Of a stretch of DNA of 64,000 nt, positions 9,436 through 62,169 are shown in pieces. The notes beneath the pieces were generated by a model. That model searched no databases, was not told where the DNA came from, and saw only the letters and a program-made list of their open reading frames with translations. Location: contig RSEE01000061.1 of assembly GCA_003971905.1 (NCBI GenBank), positions 62,001 to 126,000 of the forward strand, given 5' to 3'. The translations under genes were made by a program, and so were the position numbers. The DNA comes from Moniliella sp. 'wahieum' (Eukaryota). The number at the start of each line of letters is the position of its first letter. The stretch's first letter is position 1.

Positions 9436-12170
9436 TCAGAAGAAATGGCTTTTATTCGTCAAAGGCAGTTGCGTTGCCGCCGGGGCAGTCATAAGCTCGC
9501 CGTCGGCATGCACATCGTATCTGGAGTAGAATGGGTTAGTGCATGCTCAGAGGGGGAAACGGTGTGGGACATACGTCTCAGGGTCAACAGTAATTTGGGG
9601 CAACCAGTCATTGAGCTTCATGTCCTTCTTGCCGATCTTGCGGCAGTTCGTGACGAGCTGGATTGTCTTATCAAGTCCATATCCGGCAATGACTCCTGTT
9701 CACACATACGGTCAGTTCCAGTCCACACAAAGGCAATGGCAGGACTCACCTTTGTCGACGCTTGCTTTGCTCACAGCGAAGGAGTTTTTGTGAGCAGCCT
9801 TCGGGGCCGACCCAAACATGGGCCGTCCATAAATGGGCTGGACAGTAGGGATGGATCCGTTGGCATCGCCCATCTGAGACCAGGCGATTTGACCACCCTT
9901 GAGTACCATCTCGGGTTTGGTCCCAAAGTAGAGGGCTTGTACAGGATAAAGTCCGCCCATTTGCCTACTTCAACCGAACCAATGACATGCGACAGGCCCT
10001 GTGCAATGGCGGGGTTGATAGTGTACTTTGCCACATAGCGGCGAGCACGGGCATTGTCCTTGCCCTCCGAGTCGGGAGCGAGGCCAGTGGGAGCTTTGGC
10101 CAATGGCCCACGAACCGTCCGCATCTTGGCCGCTGTACGCCAGGTGCGCGAAATCACCTCCCCAATCCGACCCATGGCTTGGGAATCGGAAGAAATAATG
10201 CTTAGAGCCCCCGTGTCCTGCAGCACGTCTTCGGCAGCCACAGTCTCGGCACGAATCCGCGAATCGGCAAATGCCACGTCCTCCGCAATGTCCCGGCTCA
10301 GATGGTGGCAGACCATAAGCATGTCCACGTGCTCGTCGAGAGTGTTCTTTGCATATGGGCGAGTCGGGTTGGTTGAGGAGGGAATCACATTTTCCACCCC
10401 TGCCACACGGATAATGTCAGGTGCATGGCCGCCACCAGCACCTTCAGAATGGTACGCATGAATAGTGCGGCCCTTGAACGTGTCAATTGTACGCTCGACA
10501 AAGGAGGACTCGTTAAGCGTGTCGGTGTGAATGAGGCACTGTACGTCATACTCGTCGCATACGGTCAGACATGCGTCGATGACTGCAGGGGTGGTGCCCC
10601 AATCCTCATGAACTTTAAGTCCGCCACACCCTGCCTCAACCTGAGCCCGGAGGCCAGGCAAGCCGAATCATTTCCCTTGCCCGTAAAGACAAAGTTCAGG
10701 AACTGCATCCGTCGCCTCAAACATCCGTCGCACGTTCTCCGCGCCAGGCGTGCAGGTTGTAGCTGATGTCCCGGCTGAAGGGCCCGTACCGCCACCAATA
10801 ACGGTCGTGACTCCTGTTGCCAAGGCCTCTTGGAACAAGTCAGGGCAAATGTAATGCACATGTGCGTCGATCGCACCCGCGGTTAAGATAAGACCTTCAG
10901 CAGCAATTACCTCGGTGCAAGACCCAACAACCATACCGGGCGTAACGCCATCCATCATGCCGGGGTTGCCCGCTTTGCCAATTCCCACAATCCGACCACC
11001 CTTAAGCCCAATATCAGCTTTTGTCACGCCAGACCAGTCGAGAATGAGGGCATTGATAATGACCGTATCCAACGTGTCTTCATCACCTGCACCACCGCTC
11101 GCTTGGCCCATCCCGTCCCGGAGTACTTTGCCTCCACCAAACTTGCACTCGTCTCCGTACGATGTCAAGTCCTTCTCCACCTCGATCCAAAGATCCGTGT
11201 CTGCCAGACGAACACGGTCGCCTACCGTAGGGCCATACAAGGCGACATACGCTTCGCATGTGAACGTAGCTGGCTGGGGATCCTCAGTCCGGACTGACTT
11301 GGCGGGACGTCCGTCCTCAGCAAGCTCCACATCGGCCTTGGGCACCCCCATAGCCAAGAGTTTCTCGGCTACGGCAGCCAGGTCCAACTCGTCCAAGTAC
11401 CCGTAGCCACTCCATTACCGCCAGCCAGATACGGGCGCTCTCCACCCACATCCACCAACGTGACTGTGCGCACGTCTCCCGGTTCGAACCGCACAGCTGT
11501 CCCAGCAGGAATGTCGAGCTTCTTGCCAGGGTGGCTAGGCGGGGGAAGGAAAGGTACGGATTGGTCTCAATAAAGGGGTAGTCTGACAAAGAAAGAGGAA
11601 GTTCAGCCGCACGAAACAGGGGAAGGACACTGGAGGATGTGCATACGGCTTCCGACTTGAATGGGGCGATCACCCGTATTGGTGACACGAATCGAGATTC
11701 GACCCCGGCCCTTGTTGAGCACAATCGGGGAAGCGTCGGCCTTGACCACGATCGCACCAGGAAGCTCGGGGCCGGAAAGCACCTTAGGCGGGTCCTTTAG
11801 GAAGACTTGCGGGTCAGGGGGGCTCAAACCGGAGCCAAAGAGTGCGTTCTCGATGCTGCCTCAGGCGTAGCGATGGGGTCGTGGATAGTGACCAGGAAGA
11901 ACCATCGGGGAACGTGGCCTCAATCATGACTTCATGGAGCAAATGGGGTACATCGCCCAGAACATGCACGCGACCGAGGATGTTTTTGCCCCATGTCATG
12001 AGCTCCGACACGCTCAACTCGCCGTCACGCGCCTTTTCCTGTAGTGTCCAGGCGATCAGCGCTGTGGCTTCGCTGACGTTGAGGCGAAGCCCACGGGCGA
12101 GACGGCGCTGAGCAACACCGCCAGCCTGAGAGAGAAGGAGCTTGTCGCGCTCACGTGGGAGAAGGTGCAT
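9436..12170 (-). CDS. URE1: Urease (single-chain gamma-beta-alpha fungal type) with introns and frameshifts
   Basis: [11 protein letters not shown] (gamma), [12 protein letters not shown] (beta); alpha-domain nickel ligands [39 protein letters not shown] and SSDSQAMGR are all intact. Confidence 0.96.
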
Positions 12171-12545
12171 GGCGTGAGACGAGGTAAGGGTGGTGGGGGT
12201 GGGGGTAGGTGCTGCTTGTCGGTTGGGGAAAAGGTACCGACCGAATGGGGCAACGGAAACAGTGGGTGGAATGTGGAACCGATTGATACGCACGGATCAC
12301 GCGGATCGATCACGCCGGAAGATGATCCGGCTGCGGCCCCAAACTTCAAACGTTCAAATCGCCAATCATCTCCTGTCGGGGGGGCGGAAATGGCCCTTCG
12401 AAATATTTCGACCGTATTAGGTACGTTCAAGGCTCGCGTGCCACATGTCACAACTCCGATGTACCGACTGATTTTTTTCGCAGGCCCACTCGCGTCTGCC
12501 GTCAATTAAGCACGACGACCGCCACCTCCTCCGAACATCGTTATC

Positions 12546-13400
12546 ATGCGCTACGGAGTCCTGGTCTGTGGCCCAGCCGGATCTGGCAAGTCCACATTCA
12601 GTGCTGCACTGATCGCGGCCGCTCAGCAAGCGGGGCGTAGTGTCCATCTCTTCAATCTCGACCCTGCTGCCGAACGGTTCGGGTACGAGCCCGCGGTTGA
12701 CATTCGTGAACTCATCAGCGTCGAGGATGTGATGGAGGAGCTGGGTCTGGGCCCGAATGGTGCCCTGGTTGCCTGTCTGGAATATGTCTTTCCCACCCCG
12801 AATGGCTCCACGACCAGTTGGCGCCGTACGAAGACGACTACCTCATTATCGACTGTCCTGGACAGATCGAGCTCTACACCCATGCGCCCTTGGTCCCACG
12901 CTTGGCCGATCTGCTGCAGAACCAGCTTGGATTCCGCCTCGCCGCCGCCTACCTCCTCGAGGCCCAGTTTATGGACGACACGCCCAAGTACTTTGCAGGT
13001 GTGCTTGGTGCGGCCTCGGCTATGGTTCACCTCGGTCTCCCACACGTCAACCTAATGAGCAAAATGGATCTGGTCAAACGCCCTGGTGCGCAGAAGCGGA
13101 CACGTTCTGAGCTAGAACGCTACATGGACCCGGACCCTCTTCTTTTGGCTGATACTCCTGCGGGGGCGCGGAGGGTCCCGGAGGAAACACCAAGTTTGCT
13201 GCGCTAAACCATGCGGTGGCCCAACTCGTGTCTGACTTCAGCCTGGTGTCATTCCTTCCACTTGACTCGACCGACGACGAGAACGTGACGGACATCTTGT
13301 CCCACATTGACAATGCGCTTCAATATGTGAAGATGAGGAGCCCAAGGAACCCAAGGACTTGGACGAGGGCGACTACGATGCAGTCGACGAGGATTTTTAG
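12546..13400 (+). CDS. GPN3: GPN-loop GTPase 3
   Basis: MRYGVLVCGPAGSGKST, NLDPAAE, LGPNG (GPN motif), DCPGQIELYTH, HVNLMSKMDL, and a C-terminal QYGEDEEPK-like segment. Confidence 0.92.
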
Positions 13401-14202
13401 CACGCGTCATTAATCTCGGTGCGGATCGCTTGCCACTCCATCATCTGTCTTATACCCGTCCCACATTCCTGTTGTTTGCGCCAAAGCATACTTTTTCGTT
13501 CCGTTTCTTACACCCCACATACGCTGGTACGCTTGGAGGGGCCATTACTTCGTATAGTTTGGAAGAGGGCCACTCAGCGCACGCGAATGACGCGGGCGGA
13601 TGCGAATTCAAGGCATGATTGGCATGCAAAATGACGCTCAGTGAGGAACCATCTCAGCGAGCCGCTGAATCCGGGAAGTGACATATGCGGGATGAAGTTC
13701 ACATTCGTTAAACACAGCGGCCCTAGTGCCACCACAAGCACTGCCGGAGCAAAACTAACCCAGTAGGACCGGCATGGGAGGTAGTCAGTGATGTGACAGG
13801 GCCAGACGATCTGCACATGATAGATCATCGATCAAAGATCAAGATCAAATCGCCAAATCACTTATCCAACTGGGACGCCACCTCCTGGTCGAGCATCGAT
13901 GTGGACATGTCCTTTGGAAGAGGTATGCTTTTACGAGCGGTGGGCGCCGAAGGAGACAGGCCCAGGCTGCCCAGGCTGCATCGTGGCACGTCCAACCTTC
14001 AGCGGTTCAGCGGAACGTTCGTTGAACGTTCAAGTTGAACGCTGGGTAAAAACAACATGAGGCGATGAGGTCACCGGTCTCACCAAAGTGACCGGTGACC
14101 GTTGATTTTCGCCATGCATCAACATTGTGTTTGCAATTGCGTCTTCTGCCCTTCCCCCATCTTTCACGCCCTGCGCAACTTCCCACCTCCCTGCCGGAAG
14201 CC

Positions 14203-17056: not shown

Positions 17057-19127
17057 ATGGTCGATTCGGGGATTGACTCCTCCGAGCTCAGTGCCCTCGA
17101 AGTAGCAGCTGCCGAGGAGCTGGACGGAATGTCGCCTGAGGAGGCAGAGCGCTTTGTCCAGCGTCTCACAGCCGAAGGTACGCTGCGTGTGCTCTTATTT
17201 TATGTTTCTCCCCCGGCCCAACCCCAATAAACTGACCTTTCTGATACCCAGCGGAGGCTGACTTCCCTCCGGAAAGACTTGCTCGTCTGGATGAAGAGCT
17301 TCAGGACCTCGGGATTTCTCTTTGGATCCAGCGCCATGTCATTCAATCCGACTTCAGTGTGCGTGTTCTCAGATCCGTCAAACTGAAAGGCACTAACACC
17401 CAGCTCTTCTATTTCACCATTCAGATTCGCAACTTCTCATTGCCAAGGGTTCTACTGGTACGCTGCACTCCTTGAGTTGTAATCATTACTGACTGGTGTG
17501 CCATGCAGCCTTATGACTTCATTGGGGTCGAGATTCCGTCGGTTCGCCTGGTGGCGGTACTTAAAACGGTCTTGATGCGATTGTGAGTGTGACTTCCAGC
17601 CTGCAAATCTGCTCTGGTTATTGACCTTTGAAGGTATGAACGACTAGGCTACGTCATCGCAACCGATTGATGCAGTACAACTCGCCCGAGGATGCCGTCA
17701 ACCTGATCCGTAACGCCACAATATCGTTGTTCTGACGGGGGCAGGTATTAGCGTTTCCTGCGGGATTCCCGATTTTCGTTCTCGTGATGGTATCTACTCG
17801 TCGCTCGAGGGTAAGTATGGTCTGGACAAGCCTGAAGACATGTTTGACAAGTCCAGTTCATGTCCAACCCAAGTATATTCTTTGATTTTGCGTAAGTGTT
17901 TCCCTTTCCTGGGTAAGGATGACGGGCTAACGATCCTATTAGCCATACCATCTACCCATCGAATTTCAAACCGTCTGCTTCCCATCGTTTTGTCAAGCTT
18001 TTGCAAGACAAGGGCAAGTTGCTGCGCAACTATACTCAGAACATTGACACGCTCGAGCAATCCGCTGGGATCACGCGCGTATTGCAGTGCCACGGAAGCT
18101 TTGCCACAGCGACCTGCACCAACCCTCTGTGCGCAAGCGGGTCGATGGAAGCGAGATCAAGGATGCCATCTTTGCCAAAGAGGTGCCGATGTGTCCCGAT
18201 TGTCAGGCCCGGCGTGCTGGGAGAGAAAACAAACGACGTAAGAAGGCCAAGGTGAGCTCGAATGGTGCTGCTCTCTGGGTGACCCAGGATCAGACAGTGA
18301 AGATGACGAGCCACCTGGCATGGGTGTACTAAAGTACGCGATCCGTCCTCGCCCTGCACATTTGCGACTTTTGATAACTCACCTGCCTTCTTTTATCCTA
18401 GCCTGATATCACTTTCTTTGGTGAGGCACTTTCCCGCCAGTTTGATCAGCTTCTCGAAGCGGATAGGCCCGTGGCCGACTTGATCATTGTAGCCGGCACT
18501 TCCCTCAAGGTTGCTCCTGTTGCCGAGCTGTTGACCTTCATGCCCCATCGGGTGCCGGTCATTGTAATCAACAAGACGCCCATCATGCACTTCCAGACTG
18601 ACATTATGTTGTTGGGAGCTCTGACGTGGTGGTGACGTGGCTGGCCAAAGAGCTCGGGTGGGACCTCCCCGGTGCTGACGCTTCCCCGCGCGCGGTCGAA
18701 TCCACGCCAACCGAAACGAACAATGGGACAAGCCGTGCGGATACCGATGCATTGACCAAGAAAGTTGTCACCCCAGACGTTCCCTTCTCCGCATCCGTGA
18801 TCGAACCTACCAAATGGGACGGAGCGTACGTTGTCTGTGTCTCTTTAATTTGCTTTATCCGTATCTGACCTTGTACACTTAGCGACTACATCTGGACATG
18901 GCCCGACGCTGAGCTGGACATGCTCGAAAGGATGCGCGCGCCAAGCAGATGATTCTCTTGACTCGGAGCCTGGCAGGATGAGTCTGAGCAGGATGGGTCT
19001 GGGCAAGAGGAGACTGACCAAGAGGTACCTGAGCAGGGTCGCAGGGCACCAACGGCCTGAGCAGGAGGGAGACGAGCAGAGGAAGCTGAGCAGGAGAAAG
19101 AGAACAGCGAGGGGATGCTCAAACTGA
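17057..19127 (+). CDS. SIR2: NAD-dependent deacetylase, Sir2/Hst1-type sirtuin, multi-exon
   Basis: [15 protein letters not shown] (~17740), [33 protein letters not shown] and GTSLKVAPV. Gene ends are approximate. Confidence 0.9.
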
Positions 19128-19440
19128 ATCGGTCGCTGATGCGTCAAGTACCACAAAGAGCGCGCCTTCTACAAGTACTGACGCCACCTAAATGCGTCCT
19201 GTAACGATCTGTTTTTTGCTGGTGCAATGGGCGCTTCTCTGTGCTGTGACTTTTCGGGGGATAACAAATGACAGGCGGTTGAAGGGAGCGTGTTGCAGGC
19301 GGAACGGATCCGCTCTTCGTCATTGGCTCTTGTCTATACGAGTATTGGTAAACAAATCGCCTGCTTACAGCCTATAGGATGGTTCAAAGCGCAGTATCAT
19401 ATTGACTCGGATGCAATCATAGCAGGGCGCAAAGTGTTCT

Positions 19441-21916
19441 TTAAGCGACGGCCTTAACCAAACGCGCCTTTTCAGCATCGCTGTGGTTGAGTAGAATGTC
19501 AAGGTGCTTGAGGTCGTCAGGGACAAAGCGCAGAAGGTACTTGGCGTTTTCAGGGTAATCAACAACACGAGAGTGGCTGATGATGAGGCTGTTGAAAATG
19601 CGGACCAAGAGCAAGTCGTGCAGCAACTCGGCTTCCTCGGGCAGAAGCTTGACCACCTCATTGTACCCCTTGAGGAACGCAATGGCGCCTCAAGAGGATC
19701 CTCGCTGCCAATGCCCAAATGATAGTATGCTCCAATGGCCGCGTCAAACACAATCGCTGTCTCGACTGCATCGCCAAAGTCGATGATGCCCGTGATCTCC
19801 TCGGGGTGGTCAGCGTCAACCATGGAGTTGTAAGCCGAGTGATCGTTGTGGACCAGTTGGCGACGGAATGTGTGAAGTTTGGGCTGGATCTTTTCTTGGA
19901 ACATGGCATAGACCCGCTCCAACTTCTCGCGCGTGGCAGGGTCCTTGATCACGTCAATGCTCTTGTAGTTGATCGGGGCGTGCTGCAAGTCCCACACTTG
20001 AATGTTGTGCATGCCTGGGTGAGAGAAACCCTCCAAACCCTTTGTCACCTTGGCCGCCTCACGACCATGGTTGCCAGCTTGCGCAACAGAGCGCGGGGCA
20101 TCAATCATGACAATGCCGGGAAGGAAAGAGTTGACGCGCACGTACCGCTTTTGCCCTAGGCAGTCAATGTGCAGCTCATTCTCCCCAGTAAGGGCCGGGA
20201 TCTGACGAGGCACCTTGACATCCGGAGCATTCCGACCCAACCAAAGGATCAGCTCGGTTTGCAAGTTGGAGTCGTCGTGCGATTCGCCTGGATTGGCAAA
20301 CTTGATCATTAGCGCTCCGTTACCCGACTTGGCCTTAGCCGAGAAAGTCTGGTCTCGTTCGCTGTTGTGCTTGTGAGCCTTGCCATCAAACCCGTAAAAC
20401 TCGTTAAGGATCCCTCGGCAAAGTCAGTCGAGAGTGGGATCTGCTTGGCTGCCAACCCGTCTTCATTGCGGTCGGTGTGCACCGCAGCTTTGCCGCACAA
20501 CTTTTCCATGGTCGCTTTGAGCCCATTGATCAACTCATCTGCCTCCTTCTGGTTAAAGGAGATGAGGGGACGGATCTTAAGCGTCGCCCCCTCGGGGCCC
20601 ATGGTCGAGATCAGGATCCGACGCTCCCGCATCTCTCGCACCACTTCTGCCGCAAGCGCTGCATCAGGTTCTTTGGTAATACGATCCTTGACGTACTCCA
20701 CTCCAAAGTACATCCCGGCACCACGGACATGGCCGATCTGGGGATAGCCCAACTGAATCTCGCGGAACGCATTGAGAATGTACTCGCCCATCTTGCGCGA
20801 GTTTTCCGAAGCCCACCTTGGATTCGTCTAGGGTCGCCTTCGCAGCCGCAATAGACACAGGGTTGCCAGCAAATGTGTTGAAGTACCTAACTTTCTCGCC
20901 AAATTCGTCAAGCAGCTCAGGACGAGCGACCATGGCCGCGATGGGGATGCCATTGCCCATCGGCTTGCCCATTACCACCAAGTCAGGCTTGATCCCGTGC
21001 CGCTGGTATCCCCACATGTGAGTACCCGTCCGGCCAAATCCGGGCTGGACCTCGTCGGCAATGAAGAGACCCCCACGCTTGTGAACTGTGTCGATGGCCC
21101 CTGGAGGAACCCGCAGGCTCGGTAAAGAGGCCATCAGTGCTGAAAGCCATGTCGGCAATGAACCCGCAAACTTGATCCCGTGTTTTTCCATGTCGTCCAC
21201 AGCCGCATTGATGTCATCCACCAACTGCTTGGCCACATCGTCGCAGCGATACTGGTCTGGAGCACGGACCGTGCGCACGTCGCGGTCGAGCGGAACATGC
21301 GTACCCATCGTTGAGGAGATGGCTGCAACGCGGTCTGTGTTCCATGGTACGCATAGCTTGTCACGATGATCCCCGTGCCACCCGTGTTGAATTTGGCCAC
21401 CCGCAGAGCAAGGTCAACCGACTCGGACGCCGAGCAGGTGTACATGACACGGCCCAGATGGGGCTCAAAGGTGGCCAAAAGTTGGTCAGAGTAGTCCAGG
21501 ATGTTCTCATGCATGTACCGCGTATGCGTGTTGAGCGTCTGCATCTGTTTGTATACAGCCTCCACCACCCGGGGATTGCAGTGCCCAACAGAGACGACAT
21601 TGTTGTAGCAATCGAGGTAGGCGTTGCCCTGAGGATCGTACATGTACGACCCTTGCCCTTGACGAGCTCAACCGGATGCTGGTACATGAGCTGGTAAGAA
21701 GGTCCCATTGTCTTCTCGCGACGCTTGATAATGCTCTGCTCGCGGGGGTGAGACTGGCGAGCGTCTTGGGGTCAAAGCCGTTGTGCATGCCCGTGCCAGC
21801 AGCTGCGCCGAGGGAGCTGGACAGGCGCACGGGCCCAGGGCCCAGGACGCGGCCCGGGGGAGCGCGGCCGATGGCAGGCGGCGCAGAGAGGTGCGCCCGA
21901 GACGAAGGGCGAACAT
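19441..21916 (-). CDS. Putative bifunctional class-III PLP phospho-lyase (ETNPPL/PHYKPL-like) fused to an APH-family amino-alcohol/hydroxylysine kinase (HYKK-like), with an N-terminal mitochondrial-type presequence
   Basis: PLP domain: YLDCYNNVVSVGH, NTHTRY, IADEVQPGFGRTG, MGKPMGNG, YFNTFAGNP, LKIRP. Kinase domain: ILNEFYG..SERDQTF..MIKFAN, LVHNDHSAYN, GIIDFGD. The two parts join across a 1-nt shift at the GAGGGA run near 20412. Confidence 0.8.
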
Positions 21917-22815
21917 GGCGGGAAAGGGGCGGGGGAAGGTGGGAGGGGGGTGGTGGTGGTGGGCAGGCAAGGTTCTTGAGTGCCGCCCACAGCGAACGGA
22001 AGCGAAATCCTGCCAGCCGGTATCGTCGGTTCAGCCGCGGGAAAACTCGCCTGGCCGCGAAGTAGCTATCAGATATCATCAGGCCTATGCTTGAACTCTG
22101 AAACTTGCAAGGACACCCGCACACTGCGCCCCTGCCGGGCACGCGGACATATAGTGGCACACTGGGCCAGTGCCGACGGGGGGGCTTCTGGGGCATGGGC
22201 GGATAATTGCCCGTCCGCACCAAGCCAGTATTAAGGAGTGTCTCTCCACCCAGAGATAGAGGGTGGTTTGGGTCTTTGCTCCTGTGCGACACTGTCGGCT
22301 GCGCACTGCTCCTTTCTCTGTCACACTGCAGCCCAGCGCACCCACCAGTACCATCTCTCTGTGTCTACTTTATCTCCATCTCCATCCTCACCCATGTCGG
22401 CCCCATCTCCCTCGCAGCTACAGCTCCCGGTTTCCAGCTTCTCCGCGCGTGATGCTCAGACCCACTCGCCCTTACTAGACACATCGATCTCATCGATCAT
22501 CCCTCATCGCCGCATCCGTGCGTCCCTCTTAGTTCCACCTGGAAGTATTTTTCCAAAAAGTTCCGCGTTCCTATCCTCGCTATCATTTGTCCGTGGCCTT
22601 GCCTGGTACCCAGTATGTATACATTGTCTGCTGCTCGCAGATAAAGGATGTATTGGGCTACAACGCGAAACCTGCCATGAATGTGTCGGAGCGTGCGAAC
22701 ATGTCAGAGCGGGCAGGTGTCCAGCTAATGTGTGTGATGGTGCTCGGTACAAATGCCGTAACCCAGGGACCGCTTGGGGTCAATGACCCGCTCGAGACTT
22801 CTCACAAGACTTCTA

Positions 22816-25302
<2,487 letters not shown>

Positions 25303-61674: not shown

Positions 61675-62169
61675 GCTTAATGCTTCCAGTGCGCACGACC
61701 ATCCAGCCAGTCTGGCGCCGTGGCAGGCCGTGCCGCGCCCACGACGCTGGTCACCCGTGTGTCACCGGACGGACCCATGCCGCACGCGGGCAGTCACACC
61801 GCCTGTGGCGCCGATCGTGCAGGCCAGGCACGGGGCTAGTCACTCACGCCCCCCCCCACCGCAAGGATCACCACACAGGCGCGGTGCCATCTGTGGGCCC
61901 ACATGCCACGCCCACCGGGTGGTGTCTCAGGCGGCAGGAGGGCAGTGCTGCGTGGGGCAGAGCAGAGCCGGAGCGGCCAGGCGAGCCCAGGCCGTGCAGG
62001 CTCCTCGCCTGGCCGCCAACGTGGAACGCCGACGCGCAGAGCCTTAGCGCTGCGCGCCTGAGCCGCAAGCGCAGACATGTGACCGCCAGCTAGTCATTGC
62101 TCGCTTGACTCGTGGGCTGGCCTCCCGGCCTGGGCAAGGCGCCGAGGGCTTCAGCTGTAGCTGGAAAAG

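Follow-up and report, generated by a model that had tools for sequence, protein, structure and literature searches.

A fungal gene predicted to join a phospho-lyase domain to a C-terminal small-molecule kinase, with likely bacterial ancestry

We analyzed a 64,000-nucleotide stretch of contig RSEE01000061.1 of Moniliella sp. 'wahieum' (positions 62,001 to 126,000 of the forward strand; hereafter the window, with positions counted from its first letter). On the minus strand at 19444..21916, we found what we read as a single nuclear gene, in which a class-III-fold pyridoxal phosphate (PLP) domain of the phospho-lyase subgroup precedes an APH-fold small-molecule kinase domain. The predicted product is a bifunctional enzyme of approximately 827 residues, comprising a presequence-like extension of approximately 40 residues, the PLP domain, a linker, and the kinase. 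We consider the following reading likely as a whole: the gene is intact and bifunctional, the frame breaks seen in it are assembly errors, and it descends by a single fusion from a bacterial kinase/lyase pair and received its presequence later.

As assembled, the region from 21916 to 19444 appears as a run of overlapping open reading frames (ORFs) across all three frames. The PLP domain alone is split over at least three ORFs in differing frames, and Pfam Aminotran_3 was detected on three ORF pieces, at profile positions 22-131, 221-305, and 319-402. We aligned the window DNA to an intact homologue of 843 residues, P0001, by frameshift-aware dynamic programming. The two were collinear, with 732 of the 820 aligned residues (89%) being identical and no in-frame stop, and the alignment placed 11 single-base deletions in the span 19681..21834 (at approximately 21834, 21742, 21647, 21339, 21166, 21113, 21099, 20821, 20807, 20409, and 19681). 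The assembled gene is 2,473 nucleotides long, and restoring the 11 bases gives 2,484 nucleotides, that is, exactly 828 codons including the stop, from the ATG at 21914-21916 to the TAA at 19444-19446. A twelfth alignment event, an extra base at 21878 in the non-conserved presequence, probably arose from the alignment itself.

In the restored frame, an N-terminal extension of approximately 41 residues (21792..21916, with the frame break near 21834) precedes the GMHNGFD motif at which the conserved sequence starts. It is followed by the PLP domain (20510..21791, assigned from the Aminotran_3 pieces and PDB matches, with the codon of the Schiff-base lysine at 20964-20966), a short and poorly conserved linker varying in both length and sequence in alignment A1 (20440..20509, approximate limits), and the kinase domain (19447..20439). 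The kinase domain bears the HxDxxxxN loop at 19827-19850, the IDFGD motif at 19770-19784, and the beta-3 lysine in MIKF just downstream of 20309. The initial annotation of this region had described two ORF blocks with one frame break between them. The ORF list confirms that ORF 20309..20791 and ORF 19365..20309 abut at 20309. It was also correct that one base added to the GAGGGA run (20406..20412) lets the PLP domain read on into the kinase N-lobe, as the deletion at approximately 20409 lies there, inside the N-terminal helix of the kinase and not between genes. The single break, on the other hand, has given way to 11 one-base deletions. The absence of introns over approximately 2.5 kb, claimed as well, agrees with our finding no intron-sized insertion relative to P0001 across the gene, but this is weak evidence because the neighboring genes are also intron-poor (KRR1, OSCP, and GPN genes are likewise intron-free over long stretches). 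No Pfam match was found in the antisense and flanking ORFs over the gene, and tblastn with P0001 detected no second copy in the window, where P0203, P0024, P0206, and P0312 matched this locus only.

Do the 11 breaks represent assembly errors or genuine mutations in a decaying pseudogene? Eleven frame breaks within 2.47 kb are what decay could leave behind, and an association of the breaks with homopolymers is suggestive but non-significant: eight of the 11 lie within 4 nucleotides of a homopolymer run of at least three, against a background of 0.46 (binomial P = 0.07). Nevertheless, we regard decay as highly unlikely. Every break is the loss of exactly one base, neither stops nor larger lesions accompany the breaks, and the gene is 89% identical to an intact homologue at the protein level. 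The catalytic loop, the DFG-type motif, and the codon of the Schiff-base lysine are all intact. Among the 120 columns invariant across eight lyase-first homologues, 118 are kept in the window translation; of the two that are not, one coincides with a break and the other shows Met in place of Leu.

Furthermore, neighboring genes, including the essential KRR1, are broken likewise. The GPN-loop GTPase gene (12510-13410, plus strand) changes frame within 5 nucleotides near 12790, the Pfam match breaking off after profile position 75 at 12788 and resuming in a different frame with position 78 at 12794, and it changes frame again between 13153 and 13189. In KRR1 (22813-24060, minus strand), the KH domains are in ORF 22813..24060 and a conserved C-terminal segment is in ORF 22910..23203, in another frame and approximately 92 nucleotides apart; in yeast, the corresponding interval comprises 27 residues. 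The sirtuin/SIR2 gene (17714-18632, plus strand) is spread over three frames. The frame changes in these three genes span gaps too short for an intron. The breaks are not found in every gene, as the OSCP gene (24619..25299) is unbroken. The uniform one-base deletions, the absence of stops, the 118 of 120 invariant residues retained, and the like state of the neighbors thus favor the breaks being single-base assembly errors in a gene that is predicted to be intact in the organism. Single-base indel errors seem to run through the whole window, and any ORF-based reading of it calls for frameshift-aware methods.

As assembled, the region could also be taken as two separate genes or transcripts that meet at 20309, with the lyase ending and the kinase beginning at this position, since ORF 20309..20791 stops exactly where ORF 19365..20309 begins with an ATG. 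We regard this possibility as extremely remote. The stop is reached only in the frame entered past the deletion at approximately 20409; the last 35 or so residues of ORF 20309..20791 in that frame match nothing, while the other frame is 90% identical to P0001. In the AlphaFold model of the kinase (window 19683-20411), residues 1-34 form a helix (2-6) and two strands (10-15 and 21-27). The helix and both strands lie upstream of the Met at 20309 and bear a Glu and an Asp invariant in 60 aligned kinases, so that a kinase starting at 20309 would be short of all of them. Bacterial kinase ORFs carry approximately 23-38 residues ahead of the conserved YG motif, matching the stretch just upstream of the junction break. 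Because N-lobe elements lie upstream of it, the Met at 20309 lies within the kinase and the two-gene reading is untenable; no separate kinase start is evident, as the initial annotation had stated. With 14 homologous clusters present as single ORFs, we conclude that the lyase-kinase fusion is real and constitutes a single gene.

The same architecture was recovered repeatedly among the relatives. A search with the kinase ORF for longer proteins yielded 23 proteins, and all but P0019 were scanned with Pfam. Among the 22 scanned, five (P0001-P0005, 761-852 residues) had Aminotran_3 followed by APH, 16 had APH first (three of them with a Peptidase_M23 module between the two domains), and one had the aminotransferase domain only. 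Aminotran_3 spans positions 10-401/403 in P0001, and the kinase ORF of the window matched Pfam APH with an E value of 2.3e-16 (ORF 19365..20309; 60.8 bits, cut-off 23.2). In a search with the PLP part of P0001, the best 14 among the 120 proteins listed were all lyase-first. An exhaustive search of 1.84 billion cluster representatives found three of the best 150 (P0024, P0026, and P0144) to be collinear over both domains, and the remainder were kinase-first proteins of 750-1100 residues or single-domain proteins. Altogether, the family comprises 14 lyase-first clusters at 90% identity, in which the unbroken proteins are of 761-894 residues and the closest is 89% identical to the window gene. 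The prediction of a complete pair in one lyase-first chain of approximately 820 residues therefore holds, given the 828 codons and the domain order that Pfam finds in the intact relatives. The gene is not a one-off, as it belongs to this family, in which relatives have at least two paralogues. None of the 14 clusters bears a name or an accession in the protein collection searched. In P0026, the last 90 or so residues, past the DFG region of the kinase, are Pro/Ala-rich and unalignable with the family, probably owing to a frameshift or an intron in its source contig of 4.2 kb.

The PLP domain of the window (395 of 431 residues identical to P0001) belongs, by sequence comparison, to the phospho-lyase subgroup represented by ETNPPL, PHYKPL, and the Arthrobacter aurescens enzyme A1RDF1, and lyase activity is predicted for it. 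In a PDB search with P0001, the Arthrobacter phospholyase (5g4i) matched residues 76-490 with an E value of 8.6e-107 (362 bits) and human ETNPPL (6tor) matched residues 80-486 with an E value of 1.5e-90 (308 bits), and the third-best match was a racemase (1.3e-48, 169 bits). The subgroup assignment follows from the bit scores of the two solved phospho-lyases, which are approximately double those of any transaminase, racemase, or decarboxylase. The motifs DCYNN, HTRY, YFNTF, and LKIRP, said beforehand to fit the phospho-lyase subgroup better than ordinary transaminases, are present in the window, and the PDB scores bear out that subgroup. K335 and D305 (P0001 numbering), which we take to be the Schiff-base lysine and the PLP-binding aspartate, respectively, are invariant in alignment A1.

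The best NCBIfam models for P0001 were NF004799 (634.8 bits, cut-off 1128) and NF004800 (442.1 bits, cut-off 973); P0003, P0203, P0024, and P0026 also scored below both cut-offs. The proteins of these models carry the kinase N-terminally and the PLP domain C-terminally, the opposite of what the window gene and P0001-P0005 show. According to a passage of PMC8154272, transaminases make up the majority of class-III-fold enzymes, and on this ground the PLP domain might itself be an ordinary transaminase, or else a PLP lyase of another kind such as PbfA, with no kinase/phospho-lyase pair at all. We judge this unlikely, considering the twofold difference in PDB scores described above, the 192.8 bits against the PbfA model NF049939, far below its cut-off of 525, and the covalent fusion to an APH-fold kinase, an arrangement that has been cited for the known kinase/phospho-lyase pair.

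The C-terminal domain is an APH-fold small-molecule kinase with its catalytic motifs intact, as judged from the alignments and a structural model. It is identical to that of P0001 at 284 of 317 residues. In 60 aligned kinases, H188, D190, N195, and D211 were invariant and K37 nearly so (at least 90% of the rows), and the matching catalytic positions were invariant in alignment A1 too. No PDB sequence match was found for the kinase part at E values up to 0.01. The AlphaFold model, with a predicted local distance difference test score (pLDDT) of 95.6, was matched by Foldseek to small-molecule kinases with E values of 3e-10 and weaker, including homoserine kinase (2ppq), amicoumacin kinase, N-acetylhexosamine kinase, aminopropanol kinase (6ef6), and APH(2''). 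The highest TM-score, 0.74, was to 6ef6. A bacterial relative at 32% identity is labelled 'hydroxylysine kinase' at its source, which is an annotation only.

We compared the gene with the systems in which these two activities are known to be paired. Kinase-first fusions and operons are common and catalogued, and the gene is a variant of this enzyme pair. Both domains are homologous to those of the kinase-M23-lyase proteins of NF004799 (PRK06148) and of the bacterial operons and kinase-first fusions, for which the same two-step chemistry may be supposed, but the window gene differs from them in the reversed order, the lack of M23, the eukaryotic host, and the presequence-like N-terminus. In animals, HYKK (AGPHD1) and PHYKPL (AGXT2L2) or ETNPPL (AGXT2L1; 6TOR) provide a kinase of the same fold class and PLP enzymes of the same subgroup, albeit as separate polypeptides. 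The best solved relative, A1RDF1 (5G4I/5G4J), is a stand-alone protein of 446 residues with no fused kinase, the substrate of which is reportedly O-phosphoethanolamine. The aminopropanol kinase of a microcompartment (6EF6) is a separate bacterial protein with only 17% identity to the kinase model in spite of the TM-score mentioned above; it works with a class-III-fold phospho-lyase. The logic of a kinase acting with a phospho-lyase was reportedly laid out for animal HYKK with PHYKPL, and for ETNPPL, by Veiga-da-Cunha and colleagues in 2012. A passage of PMC12138971 cites Veiga-da-Cunha et al. 2012 as a case of gene fusions revealing function, and a passage of PMC8154272 cites it as the source for ETNPPL.

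By analogy with these systems, we propose that the C-terminal kinase would phosphorylate the hydroxyl of an amino alcohol or a hydroxy-amino acid with adenosine or guanosine triphosphate, and that the N-terminal PLP domain would then eliminate the phosphate to yield ammonia and a carbonyl product. The reaction would probably take place in the mitochondrial matrix. Ethanolamine, 1-aminopropan-2-ol, and 5-hydroxylysine are candidate substrates.

Phylogenies were reconstructed for 106 PLP domains and for 80 kinase domains. These were drawn from the lyase-first proteins, from 80 named bacterial loci and one metagenome locus, and from selected proteins of the collection. Concatenated trees were built from 53 rows after the exclusion of LF_P0144, L080, P0027, and P0028 (long branch) and 14 near-duplicates. 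The 14 lyase-first clusters formed one clade with a support of 100 in the PLP tree and 99 in the kinase tree, and the two trees agreed in the topology inside this clade. In the concatenated trees, the clade received a support of 100 in the quick analysis and 100/100 in the careful analysis. The same clade with the same inner topology in separate domain trees points to a single fusion event that founded the 14-cluster family. Apart from these, P0144 (771 residues, on a contig of 6 kb) is a divergent lyase-first protein, 32% identical to P0001, that was placed outside the clade on a long branch and may represent an independent fusion.

The initial annotation called both domains bacterial-looking, and this is supported by their relatives and by the position of the clade among the bacterial pairs in the trees. 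The named relatives of both domains are all bacterial, including proteobacterial and actinobacterial ones, and no named eukaryotic protein was found among the matches listed in the kinase and PLP searches. Identity to the bacterial loci ranged from 41 to 56% for the PLP domain (56% to Rhizobiaceae and Mesorhizobium; 49-50% to Roseomonas) and from 22 to 38% for the kinase. In the PLP tree, the clade fell within a bacterial group of 87 rows, apart from a group of 19 rows, and not between these two main groups. Since the PLP identity is so uneven, from 56% down to 41%, the family appears to be nested among bacteria rather than to be their outgroup. From these comparisons, a bacterial origin of the lyase-first clade is likely.

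Alternatively, the gene could be an old, vertically inherited eukaryotic one that has been lost widely. The lyase-first clade is deep, its least similar pairs being 40% identical, and the codon composition of the gene is fully host-like (GC 0.53-0.61 and in-frame GC at third codon positions 0.67-0.71, both inside the range of the neighbors); moreover, the trees were unrooted and comprised no eukaryotic ETNPPL, PHYKPL, or HYKK. We nonetheless regard vertical inheritance as improbable. For both domains, the most similar proteins are proteobacterial and actinobacterial, and neither the uneven identity to bacteria nor the position inside the 87-row bacterial group agrees with it. In addition, human ETNPPL (308 bits) is more distant than the 120 collection proteins listed (at least 444 bits), and the matches listed held no named eukaryotic protein.

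We then turn to the organization of the bacterial pairs. Among 159 bacterial or metagenomic loci, 84 had the kinase upstream of the lyase, 72 had the lyase only, and three had the lyase followed by the kinase. The matches were in different frames in 73 of the 84 kinase-first loci, indicating separate genes. These counts, together with the NCBIfam families, confirm that bacteria carry the pair as operons or kinase-first fusions, as had been said of them. The three lyase-then-kinase loci were L059 (3953-6394) and L074 (1988-4398), both of Streptomyces, and metagenome locus L120 (1037-3477), none of which came near the fungal clade in any tree. The matches were in different frames in L074 and L120, and L059 has two ORFs in the same frame with a 24-nucleotide spacer. 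L059 was once taken as a single fused ORF of 813 codons, and this candidate was rejected as the tblastn match ran through a stop codon. Two further scans of metagenomes were made: that with P0024 alone gave 24 pattern matches, none of which was confirmed, and that with alignment A1 gave 79 loci, none of which exceeded 55% identity or was a lyase-first fusion.

The pairs with the highest PLP identity were kinase-first two-gene operons, namely Mesorhizobium L006 (9-nucleotide spacer) and Neorhizobium L012 (4-nucleotide overlap). Because the nearest pairs run from kinase to lyase, read-through of a sampled operon cannot yield the fungal order; we infer that the swapped order needs a permutation, such as duplication plus fusion, or an unsampled lyase-first donor. 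The proposal that a two-gene operon was acquired and then fused thus stands in its bacterial ancestry, but requires a rearrangement in addition, as the nearest operons are in the opposite order. At L006 (864-9504), the operon is preceded by a GntR/FCD regulator gene and an acetamidase-family gene, and followed by the genes of a polar-amino-acid-type ABC transporter (two permeases, an ABC ATPase, and a solute-binding protein of family 3). This transporter context would suit a hydroxy-amino acid and may point to a substrate resembling polar amino acids, which we take as a hint from a distant relative only.

The N-terminal extension is Arg/Leu/Ser/Ala-rich and has no acidic residue; the N-terminus quoted in the initial annotation is present, Arg/Leu/Ser-rich and free of acidic residues as described there. 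Such an extension was found only in P0001-P0004 and the window (29-62 residues, with 3-8 Arg/Lys and no Asp/Glu), and an Arg is located 2-3 residues ahead of the start of the conserved sequence. The other lyase-first proteins, with a GMQNGFD motif, mostly start 8-9 residues before the motif (range 8-49, with 0-3 acidic residues). Bacterial lyase matches mostly begin near P0001 residues 53-59, although a few high-scoring segment pairs reach further upstream. Judging from its composition, the N-terminus is presequence-like and mitochondrial import is plausible. The claimed gain of a mitochondrial presequence accordingly fits the basic extension devoid of acidic residues, but has to be confined to one subclade. 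Members of the P0003 cluster, with the extension, and of the P0203 cluster, without it, report identical lengths for their longest source contig (400565 and 111435), so that both paralogues are probably on the same contigs of one organism; these matching lengths were seen for P0003/P0322 and P0179/P0203. As extended and unextended paralogues probably share contigs, we suggest that a gene duplication was followed by the gain of a presequence in one copy. The ancestor would be a bacterial kinase/lyase pair acquired horizontally, which underwent one fusion, and the presequence would have been added later in one paralogous branch.

Several points weigh against the reading proposed here. The nearest bacterial pairs are kinase-first, the opposite of the order found here. 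The sister group of the lyase-first clade is not stable: in the quick tree, the clade joined P0210 and the Mesorhizobium/Rhizobiaceae/Neorhizobium group (82 and 96), and in the careful tree it was sister to a larger, proteobacteria-rich group (94/91), the support of which was itself 70/95. To the unrooted state of the trees and the lack of animal or annotated fungal ETNPPL, PHYKPL, and HYKK in them, we have to add that the host is known for only one of the 14 clusters. The error status of the breaks is deduced from the comparisons above, and their link to homopolymers is non-significant. Finally, sequence alone cannot tell phospho-lyase from transaminase activity. With a little less than even confidence, we also envisage a eukaryote-restricted family, in which a bacterial pair entered a fungal lineage, was permuted into a single lyase-kinase chain, for instance through a tandem duplication in which the middle units fused, and was then duplicated into cytosolic forms and one mitochondrial form. 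If so, a single protein would allow these fungi to convert an amino alcohol into a carbonyl compound, ammonia, and phosphate.

A related transfer may already be on record. The catalogue of prokaryote-to-fungus transfers in mBio 2024 (PMC11708051) lists, in the rows of its supplementary file 3, Event759, comprising ten genes from nine genomes of basidiomycetes, of which seven are Tremellomycetes, one belongs to the Agaricostilbomycetes, and one is Stereum; the best matches are alphaproteobacterial class-III aminotransferases (Roseomonas and Bosea) at 41-53% identity. These donors and identities resemble those of the window gene, and the best-hit rows by which the event is known give no architecture. 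Event759 may represent the same family; if so, the transfer is on record in that file but the fusion is not. Aminotransferases are not mentioned in the main text of PMC11708051, and we found no description of the lyase-first architecture in fungi in the open-access literature. Single-genome transfers of similar aminotransferases are also found among the supplementary rows, such as Event1511 (in Wickerhamiella, 57.8% to a protein of Rhizobium), Event 2387, Event 4933, and Event 2902.

The fusion gene does not overturn the current understanding of this enzyme pair. What it adds is a eukaryotic and probably horizontally acquired version, with both predicted activities in one chain and in the opposite order. 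The congruent domain trees make it a clean example of a single fusion with a changed domain order, to which a targeting-type sequence appears to have been added later and in one paralogue only. Given the 14 nameless clusters, the family may be missing from annotated proteomes. The recombinant protein would offer a compact bifunctional enzyme for probing amino alcohols as nitrogen sources of fungi.

The window is eukaryotic, as the gene is accompanied by KRR1, MED14, a single-chain urease, a GPN-loop GTPase, a sirtuin, and ATP synthase OSCP. KRR1 scored 386 bits against the yeast protein, 360 against that of Chaetomium, and 320 against the human one, which indicates a fungal host not particularly near yeast or Chaetomium. 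The urease gene (9774-12296, minus strand) is located 7 kb downstream of the fusion gene and combines the gamma, beta, and alpha parts; introns, the same indel errors, or both have divided it among several frames.

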